Shown piece after piece: positions 1,911-56,179 of a stretch of 64,000 bases of DNA. The DNA comes from Catajapyx aquilonaris (lineage: Eukaryota): NCBI GenBank assembly GCA_000934665.2, contig KZ538063.1, positions 124,001-188,000 on the forward strand. The letters run 5' to 3'. The notes under the pieces were generated by a model. That model saw only the letters and a list, made by a program, of their open reading frames with translations, was not told the DNA's origin and did not search any database. A program made the position numbers and the translations under genes. Positions within the stretch are counted from its first letter, which is position 1. The number at the start of each line of letters is the position of its first letter.

Positions 1911-2990
1911 CTCGTTATTCGGTCAGACACCCTGTAGCTTCGGGCGTCGTATAATGGGTGGCCACGCATGCGTCTGAGGCACTATTACGCGTGTTATAGT
2001 GTGCGGCCTGAATGTTGAACGACGGTCAGTCACTCGAGTGATGTCCACTTTATTCCGGGGTGCTATATTTCCAAGCCTGCCTCGTAAGCATCTCATTATA
2101 CGAGGTGCTGGTTGGGGGCAATTCCGAAGCAAAGGAGATGTCACTTCAAGTCACACACTCTAAACGAACTATATGTGTCTTCTCGACATGCAATGAATCT
2201 CATTACCAATCAAGAGCATTGCATGGGATCGATACAGCGCACGCATGTTTGCATTGCGGAAACATGTCACACATATATAGGAATTGTCGCCCCTGTCCTC
2301 ATTAAACACTCGTCAAATCGACTGAGAGAGATATACACTTTCCAAGCCCGCAGTCGTCTGAACGAGAATTGTTTGCTTGGAAGTACTGTACATGACACAT
2401 ATACGTACGTTTCACTAACTCGGTTGAATTAAATTATTTTAAATTAAATCGCTATATTATAATGTCGAAAATAAACTAAAGTTAAAATGGCGAGTTCAAA
2501 GTTTTGTGACGTCATGCTACCCTTTCTCCTCCACCCCCCAACTTGACATCAAAAGGGGGTCGCAGAGCAGATGGGGATTAACTTTAAATAAAGTACATTA
2601 AACTACGACAACTCCCAAAACCGCGCCCCTAACTTTTCCTTCCCATCGATTTGGAGCCATGGGGGCCTAACACCACTCTCAAAACTAAAACTCTTCCATT
2701 AATTTTAACTACGAACTCAAACAATTCGTTAATTTTTGACCTCCTGTTCTTGCAATCACGACATGCACATTTGCAATTACTCTGATTTGCTGTTTAAAAA
2801 CGCACAAAAATTGTGGACAAATGTGTACGCTATTGAAGCCAGTGACGTCAAGATTAATCAACATGTCATCCACTGTGACTTTAACAGCTTAATAAATTAA
2901 CGTCCGGTTAGTTATTATTAAAATATTTTAAATTTATCAATATATTTAATGGAATATATTTAAACATATTTACATTTTTATATTCATGTA

Positions 2991-3133
2991 CAATGTTGGA
3001 CATTTAATCGGGGCATACTGCTAACGACATCTTGCTCGCCCGGCTTGCAGTACCGTATCCTTATCTTCGATTACTTCTTCTGCCGCTTCGGAAAATGTCG
3101 CTAGCAGTATGCCTCGATTAATGTCCAACACTG
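2991..3133. mobile_element. MITE family B (Tc1/mariner-type, TA TSD)
   Basis: TA|caatgttggacatttaatcg...cgattaatgtccaacactg|TA inverted termini; homologous to 30308-30606 and 55698-55849. Confidence 0.85.
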
Positions 3134-4361
3134 TAATTTATTTTATTAGCATACCGGTATTTGCGTAATTTATTTACGAGTATATTAATGTGATTTGCAG
3201 CACTTATGAATTTTGTGTAATTAATTTAATAAATATAATTTATTATACGAGTATGATTTATTTATTTGTTAATATGCCAGCAGCAGAGCACGTTCTTCGC
3301 AAAGGCTTGTTTCCATGCTAATGTATTCAACAAAAATCAATGTGTTAAATATCATGGTAACCCAGTTGCCATGGACAAACAGACCGACAAACTGCCACTT
3401 ATATACTATGTAATATTTATGTAATATATTTTATTAATGTATTTATTTATAGTCCGAGAGTGTTTTATTAATGAACGGTCGGTTAGTGTGGTCACTCCCA
3501 CAGCACACATTAAGGTCAATTGATGCAACGCACAATTCATATCTGAAACTGGGTCCATGGTTAGTATCGGTTAATAAAAGGGCGTGGCGTGATACCGAGC
3601 TGTAAATATCTGCTGGAACCAGGACCTGGAACTGTTATTTCGGGACAGAAATGAGTTAGTGAAGGGTCAGTTATCCCCATGCTTCCTGGGGCTGCCCACA
3701 ACAGTCCGGGGGAAGGGTTAGTATAGTACTCATCATCTCCAGAGAGAGGGACACACACCCACACGAGTTATGGTTGAAAGATAAGAAAATAATAATTTAA
3801 AAAAGAAACCTGAGGGCGTCAGATAATCAAAAGGCTGCGGTTGTTGTTGCTGCTGTTGCTCGTCGTTCATCTTTGGAACCGGAGTGGTGACCTGGTCGTC
3901 TAAAGAAACATGAGAGAAAACGGAAATAAGACAGTTTTTGACCAGCTCTTGCCACACGCCCCATTGTTCGTGCTGTCACAAAAATCCTTCCCATTTCCTA
4001 GATCGATCATATGTTTTTTTAACACACAAAAAAAACTTTTAAAAAGTGTCGGGGGGTGGTGTCGGGGTTGCCAACGTCAAGAGCTGGGTTCTTAACACCT
4101 TCCGGATGGGGTGGCTCCTTTTCAGTAGATGACTGACTCTGTCGAGTTTCTAGGGAGCAGGAAGTGGTGCGATCGCTTCTCGACCTCGCCCCCTTCTTTT
4201 TTGGGGGAAGCCAAGGAGGTGGGTGACATGTCACCACCCACTCTAAAAACCTGCTAACAACTCCACTTCCCGTTTTTAGCACGCCAAATGGACTTCGCAA
4301 AAAAAACGAGAGAGGCTTGTAACCAGTTTGCGACCCAAACCGGATCCAAAAATTGACTCGC

Positions 4362-5009: not shown

Positions 5010-6405
5010 CCCAAAATGACGTATGTAAGTTAAATAACGTGTACCCAAAATAACGTATCAGTTAAATAACGTCTATCCAAAATAACGTATCAGTTGAATA
5101 ACGGGTATCCAAAATAACGTATCAGTTAAATAACGTGTATGCAAAATAACGTTTATGTAAAATCACGCCTAAAGAAAATTACATGCGAGCAAAATCACGC
5201 CTAAAGAAAGTAGCAACGTTTAAAAGAAATAACGATTAAGCAAAATGACTTGCAGGCAAAATAGCGTTTGAATCAAATTAACGCTTAAATCAGCTTGTAA
5301 GGAAAATAACTTGTATTACCATTAGCAAGGGGGTTACCAGTTCGGTACACCGGTGTACACCTGCAGTGGTACTCCCAGGTACTCCTTAGGTACCTTTAAT
5401 ACTCTTTGGTACTCCTTGCTACTTCTTGAATTTGGTACTCCAGTGTATACGTACAGTTTACAGTCGAGCGGTTAACACCTTGACCATTAGTAATGAATAT
5501 AACGTTTAAGTAAAATAACGTTTAAAGAAGTAGCGAGTGGGCAAAATAACGTCTACAAAAAATATATCTGTTATACTCACGCCTAAAGAAAGTAACGGAT
5601 AAACGGAATAACGATTACGTAAAATATCTTGCAGGCAAAATTGCGTTTAAAGAAAATCTACGCGCAAAATAGCTTGTAAGGAAAATAACTTGTATTACCA
5701 TTAGTAATCAATATAACGTTCAAGAAAAATAGCGTTTAAAGTAGTAGCAAGTTGGCAAAATAACGCCTAAAATTACATATGGGCAAAATCACGCATACAA
5801 AAAGGAACTGTTAAACTCACGTCTAAAGAAAGTATCGGTTAAACGGAATAACGATTAAGTAAAATAACTTCCAGGCAAAATAGCGTTTAAAGAAAATCTA
5901 CGCGCAAAATAGCTTGCATGGAAAATAACTTATATTGCCATCAGTAATGAATATAACGCTTAGCAAAAGAACGTTTAAAGATATAGCGTGTGGGCAAAAT
6001 AACGCCCTAAGAAAGAAAAATCACGTCTAAAGAAAGTGGTAACGGTTAAATGGAATAACGATTCAGCAAAATAACTTGCATCAAAAATAGCGTTTAAATC
6101 AAATTTACGCTTAAATTAGCTTGTAATGAAAATAACTTGTATTTACCATTATAGTAATCAATATAACGTTCAAGAAAAATAACGTTTAAAGTAGTAGCAA
6201 GTGGGCAAAATAACGCCTAAAAGTACATATGGGCAAAATCACGTCTACAAAAAGGAACTGTTAAACTCACGTCTAAAGAAGGTATCGGTTAAACGGAATA
6301 ACGATTAAGTAAAATAACTTCCAGGCAAAATAGCGTTTAAAGAAAATCTACACGCAAAATAGCTTGCAAGGAAAATAACAATGCAAATAACTTATATTGC
6401 CATTT
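5010..6405. repeat. Satellite-like array: short AAAATAACG subunits in ~210-245-bp higher-order units
   Basis: gcaaaatagcgtttaaagaaaatctacgcgcaaaatagcttg..ggaaaataacttgtattaccattag recurs near 5256, 5636, 5876, 6084, 6325. Confidence 0.9.
5326..5482. mobile_element. 157-bp MITE with 8-bp TSD (P-element- or hAT-type) inserted in the satellite
   Basis: ACCATTAG duplicated at 5318-5325 and 5483-5490; imperfect TIRs caagggggttacc / ggttaacaccttg. Confidence 0.8.
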
Positions 6406-8170: not shown

Positions 8171-8343
8171 AAATTCCGATAAATTAATTATCGCACGTCA
8201 GCCTTAACGATGCCCTTATCTAGTGAATGACCTTAACGATACAGTTGACGTCCAAACAGCTTCAGATGTTTCTTCGTCTCTGCCAATCAGGTTGCGGAAA
8301 TCATTGCAACGTAACAGCTATTTTTAGTGCTATAGATACTGAC

Positions 8344-8554
8344 CCACGACGTTGAGTGTGACGAAGTAGCTGCGATGAGGCTGCGTGCTGATCTGGCACT
8401 CGTAGATGCCCGCGTCCCTCTTCTGCGTGTACTTGATCTGCAACGTCCACTCGTCCGTGTTCGGGTGGTGGATCGCCTGGAACCGCTGGTCGCTCGTGTA
8501 CGTGTAAGCACCCACCGTCAGGATGTGGATGTCTCTGTGTCGTATCCACGACAC
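8344..8554 (-). CDS. dpr6: Internal coding exon of a Dpr-family (defective proboscis extension response) Ig cell-surface protein; most of Ig domain 1; dpr6/dpr10-like
   Basis: Translates VSWIRHRDIHILTVGAYTYTSDQRFQAIHHPNTDEWTLQIKYTQKRDAGIYECQISTQPHRSYFVTLNVV (70 codons + 1 nt), with Dpr signatures VSWIR, HILTVG, TYTSDQRF and DAGxYECQIST. Acceptor ttattttgcAG at 8556-8555, donor GTcagt at 8343. Family is secure; the dpr6 paralog call rests on recalled similarity and needs BLAST/phylogeny. Confidence 0.93.
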
Positions 8555-9132
8555 CTGCAAAATAAGATAAGAAACACTCAAGATCACAGTCCAAGGTCGA
8601 ATCGCTACAAATAACCGCTACTTATAACCCTTATTTGAAAATCTGTAAATTTCCATCGATGAGCATGTTAACAGCGACTATCACTGCTATTATAGAATAG
8701 CAGCATTGTGACTGCTATTTCTGTAGTATGGTAAATGTGCGATTGCGTAATGAGGGCCAAGTGCCTGATGAATTGTTTACTGCGGAAAGTGTGCCAAAAA
8801 TATTGCAATTAGTGGATGGTAGCTGATGGGGTGGACAATACATGGCTTTTCTGAGATGGAAGAAAAACGACCGGACAAAACACACCAAGGACCCGCCCTA
8901 CTCAAGGAGTCGAGGCATGTAGTGCGCTGTACAGGGGGGTGCTATAACAATATATCCTGCGCTACAATGGCATCAATAGCAGGGCCGTGTCAATAATGAA
9001 CCAAGGCCTGAGTCGGGGGAGCTCCCACACCAGATTTATGACTTAGAGCACTTGACTCTTTTTCTTCTTCCTTTTTTTGAGAAAAATATATAGCTGGAGC
9101 AAATCATTATATAGAATTGGCTAGAGTGTGGA

Positions 9133-9241: not shown

Positions 9242-9849
9242 GATTCATTTCAGCAATTAGACCATCAAGTACCTTCAGGTGACGAAACCGTGCAAAACCG
9301 GCAACAGTGCGTCAATAATGATCCGGAGCGCATTCCGGGCTATAAATCACATCCGGTCAAGGGGAGGGTTTTAATGGCTAATGACATTTGCACAATATTG
9401 TCTCATATTGTCAGTGTAATGCCAGAGGGGGGGAGGGAGGGAGGGGAAGGGGGAGGGGGGAGGGAGAAAATAATCCGGAGCGAGCGAGCGAACATTACAT
9501 AGCTCTTTGATGACAGATATAGGTCAGCGCTGGAATACACATAATGAGCAAACTNGGGGGGGGGGGGGGGAGACGGGCGAGGGAAAACAGCTGGCAGCAC
9601 TGCGAATAATAACTGCTATTTTGAATCGCAGCTAATGCTGATTTTTTTGGGAATTATAACCTATAAACTAATCATAAGCAGCGGCACGATTTTTCAAAAA
9701 GAGCAGGACAATGAAAATCTTGAAACATGATGGCGTGCCTTATAGCCGCCCCTTTCGTAACTGTTACTTGCAGCTCTGCTCTATATCCTTTCAAGGTATG
9801 TTTACATTACGGGTACTTGTACGCTTTAATATCCATACACTACACGGAC

Positions 9850-16663: not shown

Positions 16664-16863
16664 NNNNNNNNNNNNNNNNNNNNNNNNNNNNNNNNNNNNN
16701 NNNNNNNNNNNNNNNNNNNNNNNNNNNNNNNNNNNNNNNNNNNNNNNNNNNNNNNNNNNNNNNNNNNNNNNNNNNNNNNNNNNNNNNNNNNNNNNNNNNN
16801 NNNNNNNNNNNNNNNNNNNNNNNNNNNNNNNNNNNNNNNNNNNNNNNNNNNNNNNNNNNNNNN
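16664..16863. other. 200-N assembly gap between poly-C and poly-G tracts
   Basis: Run of N flanked by a C17 run and a G8 run. Confidence 0.98.
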
Positions 16864-30200: not shown

Positions 30201-30633
30201 AATTTGGCAACGCTGCACCAGACTGTCCATGTAGTGCCATATTCCTCGCATAGATGTCTCTCACTCACTCTCTGCACACTACTGCCACTCTTAGGGTCGG
30301 GCTAGTACAGTGCTGGACATTAATCGACGCATACTGCCAGCGACATTTTCCGAAGCGGCAGAAGAAGGAATCGAAGATAAGGATACTGCAAGATTCCTTC
30401 TCCTGCCGCTTCGGAAAATGTCGCTGGCAGTATGCCTCGATTAATGTCCAACACTGTACAGTGCTGGCCATATATGGAGGCAACGACTAGCGACATTTTC
30501 CGAAGCGGCAGAAGAAGGAATCGAAGATAAGGATACTGCAAGATTCCTTCTCCTGCCGCTTCGGAAAATGTCGCTGGCAGTATGCCTCGATTAATGTCCA
30601 ACACTGTACTGGTACTATACAAGGATCTAGCTG
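30201..30633 (+). mobile_element. Family A copy interrupted by two tandem family B MITEs
   Basis: ttggcaacgctg..gtccatgtagtgcca..cgcatagatg..actgccactcttagggtcgg [MITEs] tggtactatac..ctagctg. Confidence 0.8.
30308..30606. mobile_element. Two tandem family B MITEs (30308-30456, 30459-30606) sharing a TA
   Basis: TA|cagtgctgg...ccaacactg|TA|cagtgctgg...ccaacactg|TA; each unit is a hairpin. Confidence 0.93.
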
Positions 30634-30747
30634 TCGTTCCGTCTATAAATTCCTCAACTTACACCTACCCAACTATACACTTAACTGCTGTTAGGAAGAT
30701 TCGGGAACATGTCAAAAGATGGCGCCAGAAGTCCAATCAATTGGTTT

Positions 30748-30778
30748 CAACTTACCTGCAAAGAGAAAAATAAACATA
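30748..30778 (-). other. Candidate recursive splice site (ratchet point) in the long dpr intron
   Basis: Minus strand reads tgtttatttttctctttgCAG|GTAAGTtg: polypyrimidine tract and AG (30757-30756) directly followed by a perfect GTAAGT donor, on the same strand as the dpr exon. Confidence 0.7.
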
Positions 30779-31840
30779 ATAAATAATTAAGAACAACAAT
30801 AGATTACAACAACTATTGAATTGTTCAGTATATTAAAAAGTTGAAGACGGATTAACTTCAGATAATGTTGTGAGCTAACTTATGAACCACACGGTTATAA
30901 ATGCTCGGATCAAATATTATTTTGGTACATTTTCTACTTTCAATTTACTCCCAACAATGTGCCTCTCATTTTTGCTTCAAAATATGGCTTCGCTCCGGAG
31001 AGCAGCCAAATCGCATCAGTATAAAAAGACAAGAAAAACATGGCGTCGTTAGTTCCGGTACATTCCCCCTTATGCAGAAACGCAGCACATGACTCACACT
31101 GTGCCATACCTCGCGTACGTGCTAAAACCGATTATTCAAAAAAAAAGTGCGGTTCGCAAATTTATTCGCAATGCGAGTCCAATCGGCCACCCACAAAAAA
31201 AAATATTCGCTAGGACTTGTTGTCACGTTGCAAAAACATGCCACGCACATACGCACAAGCTGGCCAAACATTGCTCGGATGGAATTGCACCAAACTGATG
31301 CAGGTTTTAGCAATATTTACGTGAATGTAGCAGCGTGCAGGGTGTGCCGGAGCTAAAAAGTGGTTCTGCGCATGCGCATCGCTGCAAGGAGGCGGAGTCA
31401 GCTCTTTGCCTCAAGGTAGCCAGGTGCTCAGGTGAATCTGGCAACTCTGACCGCGACTGTCTCACATCCCGCGGTCGTAAAAGAAAGCTCAAATCTGCGA
31501 CTTCGTTAGGACCAATCCCTGATAACGCATGTGACTAAAAAAAGAAGCGGCTAATTAATAAAAGAAGCTGGTAATTAACAGGAAGGCTCTTAAACCATCT
31601 ATAGTCTTGGAAGATTTATCGGGGCTCCGCACACCCTTCCTTCTTGGACCTTCCTTCAGACCACCTTGCCGCAAGTCTTATCGGAAAACCAGAAGAAACT
31701 CAGGAGGAAGAGCTTCAAGATTCTTCCCGTTTATGGCACATTCCAGGAGATTCCAGCAAACGGTCTTAATTAGCGGTCGGTTTTGTCAACGTTAATTAAG
31801 AAGAAAATCTCTTATTATGTCATACTAGCGAACCTCTCGC

Positions 31841-37320: not shown

Positions 37321-40300
37321 GTAATACTCGTAGTGGTATTTTGATCTCAAATTCATCGAAATTCCACAGCAAGTTTGCTAGGGCAGACGTTCACGCATTG
37401 AGTCGGGGTTGGAAATACGGTCAGAAACGCACTAAATTGGCAAGACCTACTTGACTATTGATCACCCGACACTTTTGTTGTGAATGCATTCACCCACACT
37501 ATTTTTCCGCGAATAAGGTGGGGTGCCCCCCCCCCCCTCCAAAAAAAAAACATTTTTTTTTTTTTGTCCGGAAATCCTCGTGCTTTGCGTTTTTATACCG
37601 TGACAATAAACGTGGCAATTAATTCATTATCAGTCGGTGGGAGAGCACAGCATGTGAATAAAAGGCGTGCATGCAAAGTGTTGGTGGCGCCAACATATTT
37701 TTCGGTGGAGAAAATCCGGAAATAAGTGGGCGGGGCTTATCTTCCGGACACCATTGCTTCAAGCCCATCAAACATTATCCTTCTATTCATCCAGACCTGA
37801 TTTTTTTTTGTCCGGAATAGAATGGGAGGAGAGGCTCATAATAATCGATCAGTTATTAATAGGAGGGGGGAGGGGGCATGGTTACATAGTGTGTATCTGG
37901 ACCCCCCCGGAACAATCCGGGCTTGAAAGCAGATTGGGCTTACACGGGGGATGATAATACCAGGAGCTTTTTGACCTACGAGCTCACAGGATTTTTTCCC
38001 CGGCCAAGTAGCTTAGATTTATCGCTTTTTTTTACAAAAAAAATTTCGCGATACACTTATCTACTTTTAAAGCTGGATATTAAATTAAATCCAGCAAAAG
38101 ACGGATAATAAATATTCAACATTTGAAAGACAGGTGGAGTTATTACATTGTATGTTAAACTAATTCAAATCAAACTTAAAACGTCAAATTAAATAAAATT
38201 TGAAGTATTATTTACGCGGAGGAAAATCAAATTCAATGAAGATGAAATGAAATCGAATTTATAATTATCAAATTACATTAAATTAAAATTATTAGTTACG
38301 TTAATAATTAAAGTTATTAAATCTAGGAAATTTACATTATTCGATGAAATGATGGGAAACTGAATGATTGGCTTAAGAAAATTAATATTGTGTAATTCAT
38401 TAAAATAATAAAATTAAATCAGATTCTAAGTAAATACATGAATATTATAAAACGAAACAATATACAATCGTTTTTAATTTTTAAATTAATTGCGAAGTAC
38501 AGAATATAATAGAATAAAAAATCATGACGCACTAAATTTATAATATTATTAAATTAAATGTAAATTAAAGTAACTTAAATTAAAACGATGGAATTAAATA
38601 AATCAAATAATTACATAAATTTAGAATATTATAAAATCGAAATCAAAATGAGAAAAACAACTAAAACAACAAAATAAAATAAATTAAAATGACAAAATTG
38701 AATCAAATTAAATCGCAATAATTTTTTATAATAAAATACTAAAAATTACAAATGCAGCTCATCTTAATAAGCTGTTATTTATAACCGTTCCTTTTGAATA
38801 ACAATGTATAATCACTGCTATGCAAAAAATTCGCAATATATTTCCGGACAGATTTTCTGCACCTATACAGTAACTTACATAATATGGCTTAAGGTTTTGC
38901 AAAAATTAAATGTGCAATACACCCTCCACTTTACATGATCCGCTTCCAGATTTATACCGGGTAGGGAAAAAATCCGGTACATTCTAAATCCTGGCCTGAG
39001 CTAGACTTTGCGAATGTGGCTGCGAAAAGCCCCTCCCCCCTTCCCCCCCACAAAATTTCAAATAGTGATCCAGAAGTGGTGACTCGAGCAGCTCCAACCC
39101 CCCCTCGCATAGAAACATAGGAATCATGTAAATAACAAAACCCTGGTTGCTGCGGGGGCCAACAGAAAGCGCAAAAAAACGTGTGCAAAAAATTCGCGAG
39201 TTAGTTTCTTTCGTTTTCTCTTCCTCTGCCTCGGCAATAAATTTAAATTTTGGTGGGCCCAAACTCCCCCATCGGTTTTCTTCGCCGCCACAAGACTTTC
39301 GATCTGGGTCACTCCCATTTTCAGCAACACAAAAAATCGCAACAACACTCGCTTCCAAAAACTTTAGCCGCCCAAAAATGGCGGAACAGAAACGTGGGAC
39401 TCTAGGGGAGAAAAAATGGCCGCCAAAAGAAGAGAGAGTAAGACTAATCATCACCTCCCTTCATCCCCAAATGGCAATTTGGTGTTTGCATTTTTTCTTC
39501 TTCTTCTTCGCAACAACACTTTTGCCAGCATGGCGATAGAAAAGAGCTTCTTTTCTCGCGCAATTGAAAAGGGCAAAGGGACGGGGGAGGAGAAACTTTT
39601 CCTTCAACTTTTGCCAAGGGAGGGAAGTATCTGATGGCTCTCCTTTTGTGCCAGGCTAACGAGTCTTTTACAGTGGAGAAAAGAAGGGGTCGTATGGTGG
39701 CAGGGTGAAGGAAGAGTCTGTGGCTCTGTTTGTCCGGCTCGGCTAGGTGCATTCTAGGCCAAAGAACGTTATTGTAGCTTTGAAGTCCGTCATGGACACC
39801 CCTGTGACGACTCTCACTCGAGGACCTTCGCGCCTTCTAAGTGTGGATATGTTCTTTGTGAGTCAGTCGTGAAGCGGCCTGGCTGCAGGCTGCAGGCTGT
39901 CCCGAACCTCTCTATTATTGGACCACGACACTGAGTGACTTCGCGGAGTCGGGAGAGGACACGAGGAGGTCAACCATCACAATGGCGCCCAACCGTGGGG
40001 CCGCCGTGGCCAAAATGGCTTCCCTCCGGAGAGGCGATCCACTGAGCGTAAAATGATCTGGTAACCCTGCGTCTCTTGGTTGAATCCTGCTGGAAAGTCA
40101 TGGTCCAGTGATCCCTTCACCTCCTGGAAATCCTTGTTATTCCAACGGGCCGGGAGAACCGGCTGATTAAGCGCCATCATAGACACACTGCGGCTTATCC
40201 GCTCTTGCGAATCACAGCATCCCCCCCTCACATTTGGAGCCATCCACACGTGTGCTGCAGCTGTGATATTGCTTCTCTCCTTGCCAGCCTAGCCCAGACT

Positions 40301-40619: not shown

Positions 40620-41600
40620 AAGTCACTGCCTTACAATCGCGGCTGTTTTATTATTGCGTCTCGTGGACAGTTCATTTATCCCCCTGTCTTACAATAGCGG
40701 CTACTACCATATATCGCTTCATGGGCAGCTATTTTGCGTCACTGTCTAACAATAAAGGCTATTTCCAAATAGCGTCTAATTGACAGTTCGTTTACGTTGC
40801 TGTCGTAAAATAGCGGCTATTACGAATTAGCGCTTAGTTGAAAACTATTCACGTCACTGTCTTACAACAGCGGCTATTGGCGTTAAGTAACCAGCTATTT
40901 CATGTCAGTCATACAACAGCTACTATTTTATAATCGAGTCTCGTGAACAGCTCGTTTATCCCCATGTCTTACAATAGCGGCTACTACCATATAGCGCTTC
41001 ATGGGCAGCTATTTTGCGTCACTGTCTAACAATAACAGCTATTTCCAAATAGCGTCCAATTGACAGTTCTCTTACGTTGCTGTCGTAAAATAGCGGATAT
41101 TACCAAGTAGCGCTTAGTTGAAAACTATTCACGTCACTGTCTTACAATAGCGGCTATTGCAAAAGAGCGTTAAGTAAACAGCTATTTCATGTCAGTCATA
41201 CAACAGCTGCTATTTTATAATCGCGTCTCGTGAACAGCTCCGTTTATCTCCGTCTTACAATAGCGGCTACTACCATATAGCGCTTCATGGGCAGCTACTG
41301 TACGTCACTGTCTAATAATAACAGATATTTCCAAATCGCGTCTAATGAAGTTCTTTTACGTTGCTGTCGCCTAATAGCGGCCATTTCCAAAGAGCGTGTA
41401 GTAAACAGCTATTTCACGTAGCCGTCTTACAATAGCGGCTATTTTATAATCGCGTCTTGTGAAGAATTAGTTTACCTTCATGTCTCACATAACGGCTACT
41501 ACCATGTAGCACTTAGTTGACAGCTGTTCAAGTCTTACAATAGCGGCTGTTTTCAAATCGCTGTTAGTGGACAGCACTTTCGCGTCACTATCTTATAATA
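40620..41600. repeat. Satellite: ~40-bp subunits (cttacaatagcggcta) in ~280-bp higher-order units
   Basis: cttacaatagcggctactaccatat..gcttcatgggcagcta at 40688, 40968, 41254. Confidence 0.92.
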
Positions 41601-52924: not shown

Positions 52925-53850
52925 AAGTAGTTATTTAAAGTAGTTATTTTAAGTGGTTATTTATTAAGTAGTTATTTATTAAGTAGTTATTTTAAGTGGT
53001 TATTTATTAAGTAGTTATTTATTAAGTAGTTATTTATTAAGTAGTTATGTTAAGTAGTTATTTATTAAGTAGTTATGTTAAGTAGTTATTTATTAAGTAG
53101 TTATGTTAAGTAGTTATGTTAAGTAGTTATTTATTAAGCAGTTATAAGTAGTAGTTATTTGAAGCAGTTATTTATTGAACCGTTATTATCAGTAGCTATT
53201 TATCAGCAGTGATTCATTAAGCAGCTATTTATTAAGTAGTAATGTATAAAGTTGTTATTTATAAGTAGCTATTTATCAGTTATTATTATTAGTTATCTAC
53301 CAATTATTATTAGTAGTTATCTATCAGTTATTATTAGTAGCTATCTACCAGTTATTGTTAGTAGCTATCTACCAGTTATTGTTAGTAGCTATCTACCAGT
53401 TATTGTTAGTAGCTATCTACCAGTTATTGTTAGTAGTTATCTGCCAGTTATTGTTAGTAGCTATCTACCAGTTATTGTTAGTAGTTATCTATCAGTTATT
53501 ATTAGTAGCTATTTGTCAGTTGATATTTTTAGTAGCTTTTATCAGCTGATATTATGTAGTAGCTTTTATCAGTTGATATTATGTAGTAGCTATTTATCAG
53601 TTGATATTATTTAGTAGCTTTTATAAGTTGATATTATGTAGTAGCTATTTATCAGTTGATATTATTTAGTAGCTTTTATAAGTTGATATTATGTAGTAGC
53701 TATTTATCAGTTGATATTATTTACTAGCTTTTATCAGTTGATATTATGTAGTAGCTATTTATCAGTCGATATTATTTAGTAGCTTTTATCAGTTGATATT
53801 ATTTAGTAGCTTTTATCAGTTGATATTATTTAGTAGCCATTTATTAAATG
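52925..53850. repeat. Compound minisatellite (AAGTAGTTA units, then 24-bp units, then ~26-27-bp units)
   Basis: (aagtagttatttatt)n; (agttattgttagtagctatctacc)n; (agttgatattatktagtagct..)n. Confidence 0.92.
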
Positions 53851-54071: not shown

Positions 54072-55697
54072 GATCCCATACCTGAAGGATTCATCTGTTT
54101 GAGCAGTTCTCCGTGGGAAAAAAGAGATCCGGATCGGGGCTGTCACATCTGATGATCCGGATGGAAATACGGGCACGGAATTGTGGAGAGTACATGGTTC
54201 CATCCTCATTTGTCAGGGCCCGTTTTATAAGTCCAGGACCTACAAAAATTCCAGACCAGACCTCGCTCTTTTTTTGTGTACGTACAGTATGTCCCACTAG
54301 TGGAGTGGGACGTCCCGAGTGTCGTCTGACATCTGCGGACGCGATAAGCAAACCGGACTGATCGGGTTAAACTCACCCCCCCTCTGAAGCTGCAAGACCC
54401 GCCCATCATGCTACTATGCTATCGACTATAGCGTTTTTCCTACTCGCTCTTCTCTACCCCCCAAAAAGTCGATATGTGGAGGTGGGCCAACTTGACTTCC
54501 GATTCACAAAAAAAAAGAGAGATAGAAATTTTTGTTCGTATCTAGCCTCATTTGCATGCCAATGTCTCAGGCCTTGGCCCATGTTGGACCGGGTTACGAC
54601 TCACTACAGGAAATCCGACCCTGATAGGACGAATTAGCATAGCTGCTGAAACAAAAATTGGCATCAACTAACCTGCACCCCCCCCCCCCCCAAAGTAGCA
54701 GCTAAGCTAGAATTAGCTAAGAAAAATGGAGCATCTGCTGGAAGTGACAGTATAGCTGCTTAATCAATAGCTCACTTTAAATAACCATATAGCTGCATAA
54801 AAGAGAGACTGCTTAAAGTAAAGCAACCACATATTTTATGCAGCTGGTTAAAATGGCAGTGGAGCTTTTAAACGAGGAAAAATAGGCAATTTGACCACCA
54901 TGCGATTAATATCAGTAACATTCTAGTTAACTCAGTAACTGCTACTTTGACCACCATGCGATGAAATATAGCAGTGACGCATAAGTTTTAGTTTTTAGCG
55001 CAGCAGCTACTTGTATTTGCTAGATGTCCTCGTCACTTCCGCAACCTTTTATTCTTCTTCTCCGAATCAATTTATTCTCTCTATGATATAATGGGGTCTA
55101 CCCAGCGGGAGGGCCGACTGATAATAAAAATGGCGGACGGTTGGAATTAATTAAAGAGCCTGGTCGCGTGCAATATCCATGTCCACAACTTTTCTGGGGG
55201 GGGAGGGGGAGGGGTTGATTTTTTTTTAAAAAAAGGGGGGGGGGGGGAATTGAGGTTAGAGCTCTCGGTGGGCCAATCCGAGTTGGGACATTTCAAAATC
55301 CATCCTTCAAACTCTTCTCTCTTTTTTTTGGTGCATTTTAGAGGGTGGCATCAGGGTTGCCAATTGCGTTAAAAATAAGACCGGGGGGAGTAATGGGTTG
55401 GGGAGGCGGTTGTGATGACAATAAGGGTTATATAGGAGAGACGCACAACCAGGTTTTGCATTATTGCTCCTCTGAGGTGCCAGCCAGGGAGAGGCGGCCA
55501 TATTTCCAGAATTTGCATAATGGATGAGCGCGAGATACTTCTTTTTTCGGGGTCGGTCGGTTGGTTCATGGAGGTGCCTTCAGGGGGAGGGTTGGCTGAT
55601 TTGCATCCCGAAAGCCAAGGACGACCTGCCCAATCGAATGGCTAGACTCGAAATCCACGCTTTAAAAAAAATATACATGTTCGTAAAATGGCGCGTA

Positions 55698-55849
55698 CAA
55701 GTGTTGGTCATAAATAGAGGCAACCGCCAGCGACATTTTCTGAAGCGGCAGAAGAAGGAATCGAACTTACAAGCCGGGCGAGCAAGATTCCTTCTTCTGC
55801 CGCTTCGGAAAATGTCGCTGGCGGTTGCCTCGATATATGACCAACACTG
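55698..55849. mobile_element. MITE family B, second TIR subtype
   Basis: TA|caagtgttggtcata..gaggcaaccgccagcgacattttc...gaaaatgtcgctggcggttgcctc..tatgaccaacactg|TA. Confidence 0.9.
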
Positions 55850-56179
55850 TACAGGGCAGTTTTAGCATCTGATGACGTCGCATCATGGTCAAATTTGAGC
55901 AGCAGCTATGTAGCTGCTAAAAGAGCAGTCACTGTAGTCCAGTAGCGATTGCTGATTGCTTCCTATATCTTGGAATCACATGTAGGGCAGTTTAAAAATA
56001 CGGTATGACAGGTCATCTTAAATGCGGTATGACAGGTCATCTTAAATACGGTATGACACTTCATCTTAAATGCGGTATGACACTTAACTGATATTAAATA
56101 CGGTGTCGCAACAATTATTTTCAAATACGAAACTTTTCAGGCCTACTTAACATCTAATTTATTATTTATAGTCTTAGCA

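Follow-up and report, generated by a model that had tools for sequence, protein, structure and literature searches.

Drosophila and a few vertebrates are the only animals in which recursive splicing is well mapped. Drosophila ratchet points consist of a 3' splice site juxtaposed with a 5' splice site, and the 197 of them described in the Duff preprint lie in introns of 11–133 kb, from which segments of 2.6–63.6 kb (mean 18 kb) are removed. According to the same preprint, TT occupies positions -6/-5 in 196 of these 197 ratchet points vs. 44% of ordinary 3' splice sites, and the branch points are found mostly between -36 and -21. The available part of Pai 2018 gives a high-confidence site for 63% of those fly introns that exceed 40 kb; the fly motifs listed there (supplementary table 1) resemble ...CTTTGCAGGTAAGTT and are very close to the site at position 30756 that is described below. 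As far as the accessible portion of Joseph et al. 2021 goes, ratchet points require a short downstream cryptic exon, about 50 nt long with variable length, and the ratchet-point donor is usually stronger than the donor of the cryptic exon. According to the same portion, these cryptic RS-exons of flies show poor conservation, are in general out of frame, are skipped in all cases and are harmful if included.

On the vertebrate side, the available part of PMC8797253 places mouse recursive sites in the IgLON gene Lsamp, in Cadm2 and in Hs6st3, names NTM among the recursive-splicing genes, and describes fixed recursive sites as rare in mouse brain. For the lungfish, the excerpt at hand indicates recursive splicing at levels similar to human, fixed sites being rare there too. 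This rarity in both mouse and lungfish makes such a site less to be expected beforehand in a large genome other than that of a fly. Among vertebrate proteins, IgLONs such as Lsamp and NTM are regarded as most closely related to the Dpr/DIP proteins. Among arthropods other than flies, the literature searched contained a single case, the recursive site predicted for locust NPF1 within its second intron of 230 kb, which was found by means of the fly motif and has support from U2AF65 RNA immunoprecipitation (PMC8892266). A link between dpr genes and recursive splicing was not found in the main texts searched; 'dpr' and six presumed FBgn identifiers are absent from the five supplementary files of Pai 2018, a study of S2 cells, and 'dpr' is absent from the searched supplements of PMC8906543 (all but one file) and of PMC8605326.

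Here we analyze a stretch of 64,000 nucleotides of Catajapyx aquilonaris DNA, referred to as the window, to which all positions relate and for which an earlier note had proposed a ratchet point in a giant dpr intron. We consider it somewhat more probable than an even chance that the junction 30756|30755 of the minus strand is a genuine recursive splice site accompanied by a cryptic exon that bears a stop, situated in a dpr6-like neuronal IgSF gene within an intron that exceeds 55 kb in the assembly.

The dpr6-like exon and its intron

Two features of the window define the host context of the site:

8344..8554, minus strand: dpr6-like exon that codes for the second half of Ig domain 1, with the acceptor ttttgcag|GTG at 8555|8554 (phase 0) and a probable donor G|GTCAGT at about 8344|8343

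16664..16863, no strand: assembly gap of 200 N that separates the dpr exon from the candidate ratchet point and could in principle hide an exon

For the open reading frame 8330..8617 on the minus strand, Pfam indicates half of an Ig V-set domain at E 1.5e-5, with 25.6 bits vs. a cut-off of 26. A protein search with the exon yielded 1045 of 1046 candidates at E<=0.001, and the best 120 protein matches are insect Ig proteins, several of which are named dpr6 by their source (P0061, P0069, P0082, P0106); the top matches are of the dpr6 type, with identities of 85–89%. Identity to Drosophila proteins amounts to 85–86%, the top value among the matches listed being about 89–90%; by these values the DNA belongs to an arthropod outside the drosophilids. 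It is this close similarity of the exon 8554..8344 to named dpr6 proteins that identifies it as being of the dpr6/10 type. When 18 full-length homologues were used in tblastn, the sole exon recovered was 8554–8345, with E values of about 1e-35 to 1e-39, and no credible upstream dpr exon was detected between 8555 and 64000 at E values up to 1000 with a word size of 2. A candidate for the first half of Ig1 at 39415–39344 (33% identity, E 0.6–1.5) was rejected, as it is without the conserved NVT and Cys. The two-Ig architecture and the signal peptide are not represented in the window, which holds a single dpr exon, the rest being presumably outside; their absence is a matter of where the window ends and does not count against dpr membership. 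The genuine dpr exon also starts with GT (cag|GTGTCG), so that its acceptor is likewise of the AG|GT type; the GTGTCG that would be regenerated there is a poor donor.

None of the 51 other open reading frames of at least 100 aa reaches the Pfam cut-off (three have sub-threshold matches at chance level), by which nested genes and transposon reading frames in the window are rejected, and Rfam gave no match at gathering scores. Since there is neither another dpr exon nor another reading frame that passes Pfam, the surroundings look like one long non-coding intron, which would exceed 55 kb provided that the assembly is contiguous. The candidate site is on the same, sense, strand as the dpr exon, and its position suggests that it lies inside the dpr transcript and intron, with the upstream exon and the transcription start outside the window. 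It would leave at least 33,244 nt of the intron on its 5' side and nominally 22,201 nt on its 3' side. The earlier note had put the distance to the dpr acceptor at 22.2 kb; this figure stands for the assembly as it is, and is to be taken as nominal because the 200-N gap at 16664–16863 intervenes (205 N in total between site and acceptor). The assembly is of draft quality, with this gap and ten isolated single Ns at 9555, 21341, 23291, 28413, 29782, 33950, 45176, 49452, 51281 and 59135, several of them inside homopolymer runs, as X residues in poly-P or poly-G translations indicate. The window is also very rich in tandem repeats of the minisatellite type (61 TRF rows with periods of 11–450, for example at 40646–41443, 52925–53844 and 5484–6379).

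Architecture of the candidate ratchet point

The following features, given from upstream to downstream in the sense of the minus strand, make up the candidate site and its putative cryptic exon:

30786..30790, minus strand: branch-point-like TTAAT with a candidate branch A at -32 (30787), inside the range of -36 to -21 of the Duff preprint

30760..30779, minus strand: polypyrimidine tract from -24 to -5, with 17/20 pyrimidines and TT at -6/-5

30750..30758, minus strand: ratchet-point core CAG|GTAAGT, with the junction at 30756|30755

30663..30755, minus strand: candidate cryptic RS-exon of 93 nt, 42% GC, with stops in all three frames

30657..30668, minus strand: donor cluster of the cryptic exon, consisting of GGT|GTAAGT (GT at 30662–30661, 93-nt exon) and TGG|GTAGGT (GT at 30668–30667, 87-nt exon)

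Direct reading of the minus strand and a check by script both give TTTTTCTCTTTGCAG|GTAAGT at 30756|30755, within the longer context ...TTATGTTTATTTTTCTCTTTGCAG|GTAAGTTGAAACC. The AG of the 3' splice site corresponds to 30757–30756 and is preceded by C (CAG at -3 to -1); the GT that follows directly is 30755–30754, as part of a GTAAGT at 30755–30750. The pyrimidine tract contains an unbroken run of 11 nt, TTTTTCTCTTT, and ends with the TT at 30761–30760. Upstream of the acceptor extends a zone of 55 nt free of AG, the closest AG being 30814–30813. The juxtaposition of AG and GTAAGT that the earlier note had read at this junction is thus found with the same letters at the same position, and its long polypyrimidine tract followed by CAG is borne out by the 17/20 pyrimidines at -24 to -5. 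Three published hallmarks of ratchet points that it had not listed are present in addition, namely TT at -6/-5, the A of TTAAT at -32 and the 55-nt AG-free zone. Indeed, the 30756|30755 site, which has the zero-nucleotide ratchet-point motif, shows every sequence feature of ratchet points that was tested. Moreover, the nine bases of the core (CAGGTAAGT) fully match what we take to be the 5' end of U1.

A second GTAAGT follows at 30662–30657 in the context GGT|GTAAGTTG, 93 nt beyond the junction as had been proposed, and together with the GTAGGT at 30668 (87 nt) it provides the downstream cryptic 5' splice site that a ratchet point of the fly type has. Its eight intronic bases GTAAGTTG are identical to those of the ratchet-point donor. 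GGT stands at -3 to -1 of the RS-exon donor, and which exonic bases the regenerated donor would have depends on the upstream exon, which is outside the window. The 93-nt interval opens GTA AGT TGA, with TGA at 30749–30747, and because the acceptor at 8555|8554 is of phase 0, the reading of the cryptic exon as V-S-stop holds; the phase-0 stop that had been pointed out earlier is in fact accompanied by stops in both other frames.

Two tandem copies of a MITE-like palindromic element of about 155 bp are present at 30305–30610 and start 47 nt 3' of the donor of the cryptic exon; further copies are found at 55695–55857 and 2987–3135, the mean column identity of the four copies being 86%. In the sense RNA the tandem pair forms one long hairpin (MFE -226.6 kcal/mol, z -32.5, none of 100 shuffles equally stable), and the pair could be a transposon insertion. 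An origin of the 30756 site from a repeat is rejected, as the window contains a single copy of it, outside the repeats, the closest of which ends at about 30610.

Comparison with described recursive sites

The locus resembles the Drosophila ratchet points with cryptic RS-exons that are described for Ubx, kuz, Bx, luna and others in the available parts of Duff et al., Joseph et al. and Pai et al. in its juxtaposed acceptor and donor, its strong pyrimidine tract, the TT at -6/-5 and the CAG|GTAAGT core, as well as in the branch-like motif near -30 and the downstream cryptic donor that defines a short, stop-bearing non-coding exon. The very long intron of a neuronal gene is another common feature, and the nominal 22-kb segment is within the 2.6–63.6 kb of flies. 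On the other hand, the host is a non-drosophilid arthropod, the cryptic exon measures 87–93 nt instead of the approximately 50 nt (variable) given for flies in the portion consulted, the intronic part of the cryptic donor is as strong as that of the ratchet-point donor, and there is one site in more than 55 kb.

With the locust NPF1 site (PMC8892266) the locus shares a non-drosophilid arthropod host, a prediction based on the fly motif, the giant size of the intron, and the presence of a pyrimidine tract and a branch point upstream. It differs from the locust case, which has the support of U2AF65 RNA immunoprecipitation, and from the fly sites in that it is a prediction from sequence. The resemblance to vertebrate RS-exons (Sibley et al. 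2015, as cited in later papers) concerns exon definition, the premature stop that results if the cryptic exon is included, and the long neuronal IgSF adhesion genes that serve as hosts. The motif of the present site is of the fly type, however, and a vertebrate genome has few such sites; the comparison does not imply that the sites are homologous.

Frequency of the motif and the possibility of chance

The main alternative to recursive splicing, and a serious one, is that a T-rich tract with CAG happens to adjoin a GTAAGT in an AT-rich intron, with a second GTAAGT 93 nt away, and that the spliceosome makes no meaningful use of either. We therefore give the frequency of the motif at several levels of stringency. 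The short pattern AGGTAAGT is not unusual by itself: the 30756|30755 site is its only occurrence in the window, vs. a mean of 1.86 in shuffled sequences, 85 of 100 of which contained at least one. The longer pattern YYYYYYYYYNCAGGTAAGT has the same site as its sole match without mismatch, and two matches vs. 0.75 expected when up to two mismatches are allowed. An exact search of metagenome contigs with the 23-nt core gave no match.

A composite was then defined by at least 13/20 pyrimidines, TT at -6/-5 and YAG|GTRAGT, with thresholds that were set after the site had already been seen. Among the 331 AG|GT sites of the window (162 on the plus and 169 on the minus strand), the 30756 site is the only one to show it, and the antisense (plus) strand has no such composite. 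The only other AG|GT that passes a looser filter, at 9796 on the plus strand, is AAG|GTATGT (CCTTTCAAG|GTATGT) with 15/20 pyrimidines, antisense to dpr. If the parts are assumed to be independent, the 53, 12 and 2 acceptor-like contexts at thresholds of 13, 15 and 17 pyrimidines, multiplied by the GTRAGT frequency, give expectations of 0.041, 0.009 and 0.002 per minus strand. Markov simulation of the minus strand (300 windows for each of orders 3 and 5) resulted in the following numbers of composites per window:

Threshold 13/20: 0.010 at order 3, 0.020 at order 5

Threshold 15/20: 0.007 at order 3, 0.007 at order 5

Threshold 17/20: 0 at order 3, 0.003 at order 5

The composite together with a second GTRAGT 30–155 nt downstream was obtained in 0/300 simulated windows at either order. 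A chance occurrence of the composite motif within the window is thus unlikely.

The argument for chance draws on a different scale. Even about 0.01 composites per 64-kb strand corresponds to hundreds of composites in a gigabase-sized genome, and large vertebrate genomes have few fixed recursive sites, as far as the partial sources extend. In addition, AGGTAAGT is at chance level (1 vs. 1.86 expected), and with 26 GTAAGT per 64 kb on the minus strand a second copy within 30–150 nt has a likelihood of about 5%, all the more as a weaker downstream donor would also have been accepted. What speaks against a pseudo-site is the coincidence of all hallmarks at 30756 (TT at -6/-5, CAG, perfect GTAAGT, 17/20 pyrimidines, a branch-like motif at -32 and 55 nt without AG), in sense orientation within the giant intron of a neuronal IgSF gene, together with the simulations and the lack of a composite on the antisense strand. 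On balance we regard a fortuitous origin as rather unlikely. Several points nevertheless count against recursive splicing and have to be kept in view: there is only one composite site in more than 55 kb, a length at which several are frequent in fly introns; taken by itself, AGGTAAGT shows no enrichment; chance motifs scale with intron length; the thresholds of the composite were set with the site in view; the host is not a drosophilid; the 200-N gap separates the site from the dpr exon; and the donor of the cryptic exon equals that of the ratchet point in its eight intronic bases, where in flies the latter is usually the stronger.

Strand asymmetry and other roles of the donor

GTRAGT occurs 49 times on the minus and 20 times on the plus strand of the whole window (binomial p 6e-4), GTAAGT 26 vs. 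8 times, and the poly(A) hexamers AATAAA and ATTAAA together 96 times on the minus vs. 153 times on the plus strand. The GTAAGT skew is present on both sides of 30756, up to the end of the window, and base composition accounts for only an approximately 1.1-fold skew. These figures fit transcription of the minus strand across the window, and they fit selection that acts, along the axis of U1 and poly(A) signals, on whichever strand of a long intron is transcribed. At least 16 of 1406 hexamer pairs are, however, skewed by strand at p<0.001; since the skews are over-dispersed to this extent, those of GTRAGT and of the poly(A) hexamers amount to weak support.

The same asymmetry is relevant to the suggestion that the GTAAGT at 30755 has another role, either as the 5' splice site of an upstream exon that is not annotated, be it non-coding or an alternative first exon, or of some other transcript, or as one among many sense-strand U1 sites by which premature cleavage and polyadenylation are suppressed in the long intron. 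The full 9-nt match of CAGGTAAGT to the presumed U1 sequence is what such an element would show, and the sense-strand enrichment of GTRAGT with depletion of poly(A) hexamers is in line with it, within the limit that the over-dispersion of the hexamer skews sets to this evidence. Yet the 60 nt upstream are AT-rich and pyrimidine-rich and include the AG-free zone, which makes them acceptor-like and not exon-like, and a simple U1 site needs neither a pyrimidine tract nor TT at -6/-5 nor CAG. This role seems to us improbable; an alternative first exon ending at 30756, in particular, is unlikely in view of the AT-rich, acceptor-like sequence upstream.

The remaining explanation takes the 93-nt (or 87-nt) interval as a regulated 'poison' cassette exon or expressed RS-exon, which would be included in a fraction of the dpr transcripts, truncate the frame and lower protein output. 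Like poison cassette exons, the interval is short, has strong splice sites at both ends, the intronic part of its donor being equal to that of the ratchet point, and contains in-frame stops, here in all three frames. Poison cassette exons differ in that their inclusion is regulated in a fraction of the mRNA and that, as a rule, they have no consensus 5' splice site at their start; the perfect GTAAGT with which the present interval opens is a signature of re-splicing that ordinary cassette exons do not have. The usual donor consensus at the exonic positions -3 to -1 is MAG, from which the GGT of the downstream donor deviates. Flies do have expressed RS-exons, fewer than 50 in number, inclusion being set by competition between donors and by exonic sequence (Joseph et al. 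2021, accessible portion). For the 93-nt interval such a use appears improbable.

Proposed mechanism

Recursive splicing at 30756|30755, through which the giant intron is probably removed stepwise, would proceed in steps that we deduce from the sequence and from the published model for Drosophila and vertebrates. The 93-nt (or 87-nt) interval would be recognized as a cryptic exon, with U2AF and U2 on the TTAAT branch region, the pyrimidine tract and CAG, and U1 on the downstream GTAAGT (30662) or GTAGGT (30668). The upstream dpr exon, beyond the window, would then be joined to 30755, and the first segment, of at least 33 kb, would leave as a lariat. This ligation would rebuild a 5' splice site from the end of the exon and GTAAGTTG, which would be preferred over the donor of the cryptic exon and joined to the 8555|8554 acceptor. 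In this second step the nominal 22.2-kb segment would be removed and the cryptic exon with it, which would leave no trace in the mRNA. Should the downstream donor be used instead, the mRNA would read V-S-stop straight after the upstream exon. The site is a good sequence-based prediction of a known mechanism and not a discovery.

Implications

If the site is real, it is of moderate interest because it lies outside Drosophila. Ratchet points of the zero-nucleotide type known from flies, with TT at -6/-5 and a stop-bearing cryptic exon, may then be at work beyond Drosophila, in a distant arthropod's dpr6 orthologue, a reading that we put forward tentatively and with less than even confidence. Were the site used, the ratchet-point grammar of flies would be portable across arthropods and could serve to annotate giant neuronal introns from their sequence, and a donor mutation at one position of a synaptic-specificity gene should turn a silent intron element into a stop-bearing exon. 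The excess of U1 motifs on the sense strand and the deficit of poly(A) signals would, if the prediction is true, be part of a single system for the protection of very long neuronal transcripts. The removal in steps of giant introns from neuronal IgSF adhesion genes, dpr in arthropods and IgLON and Cadm in vertebrates, would in that case be ancient or have evolved repeatedly, and would not be a peculiarity of drosophilids.
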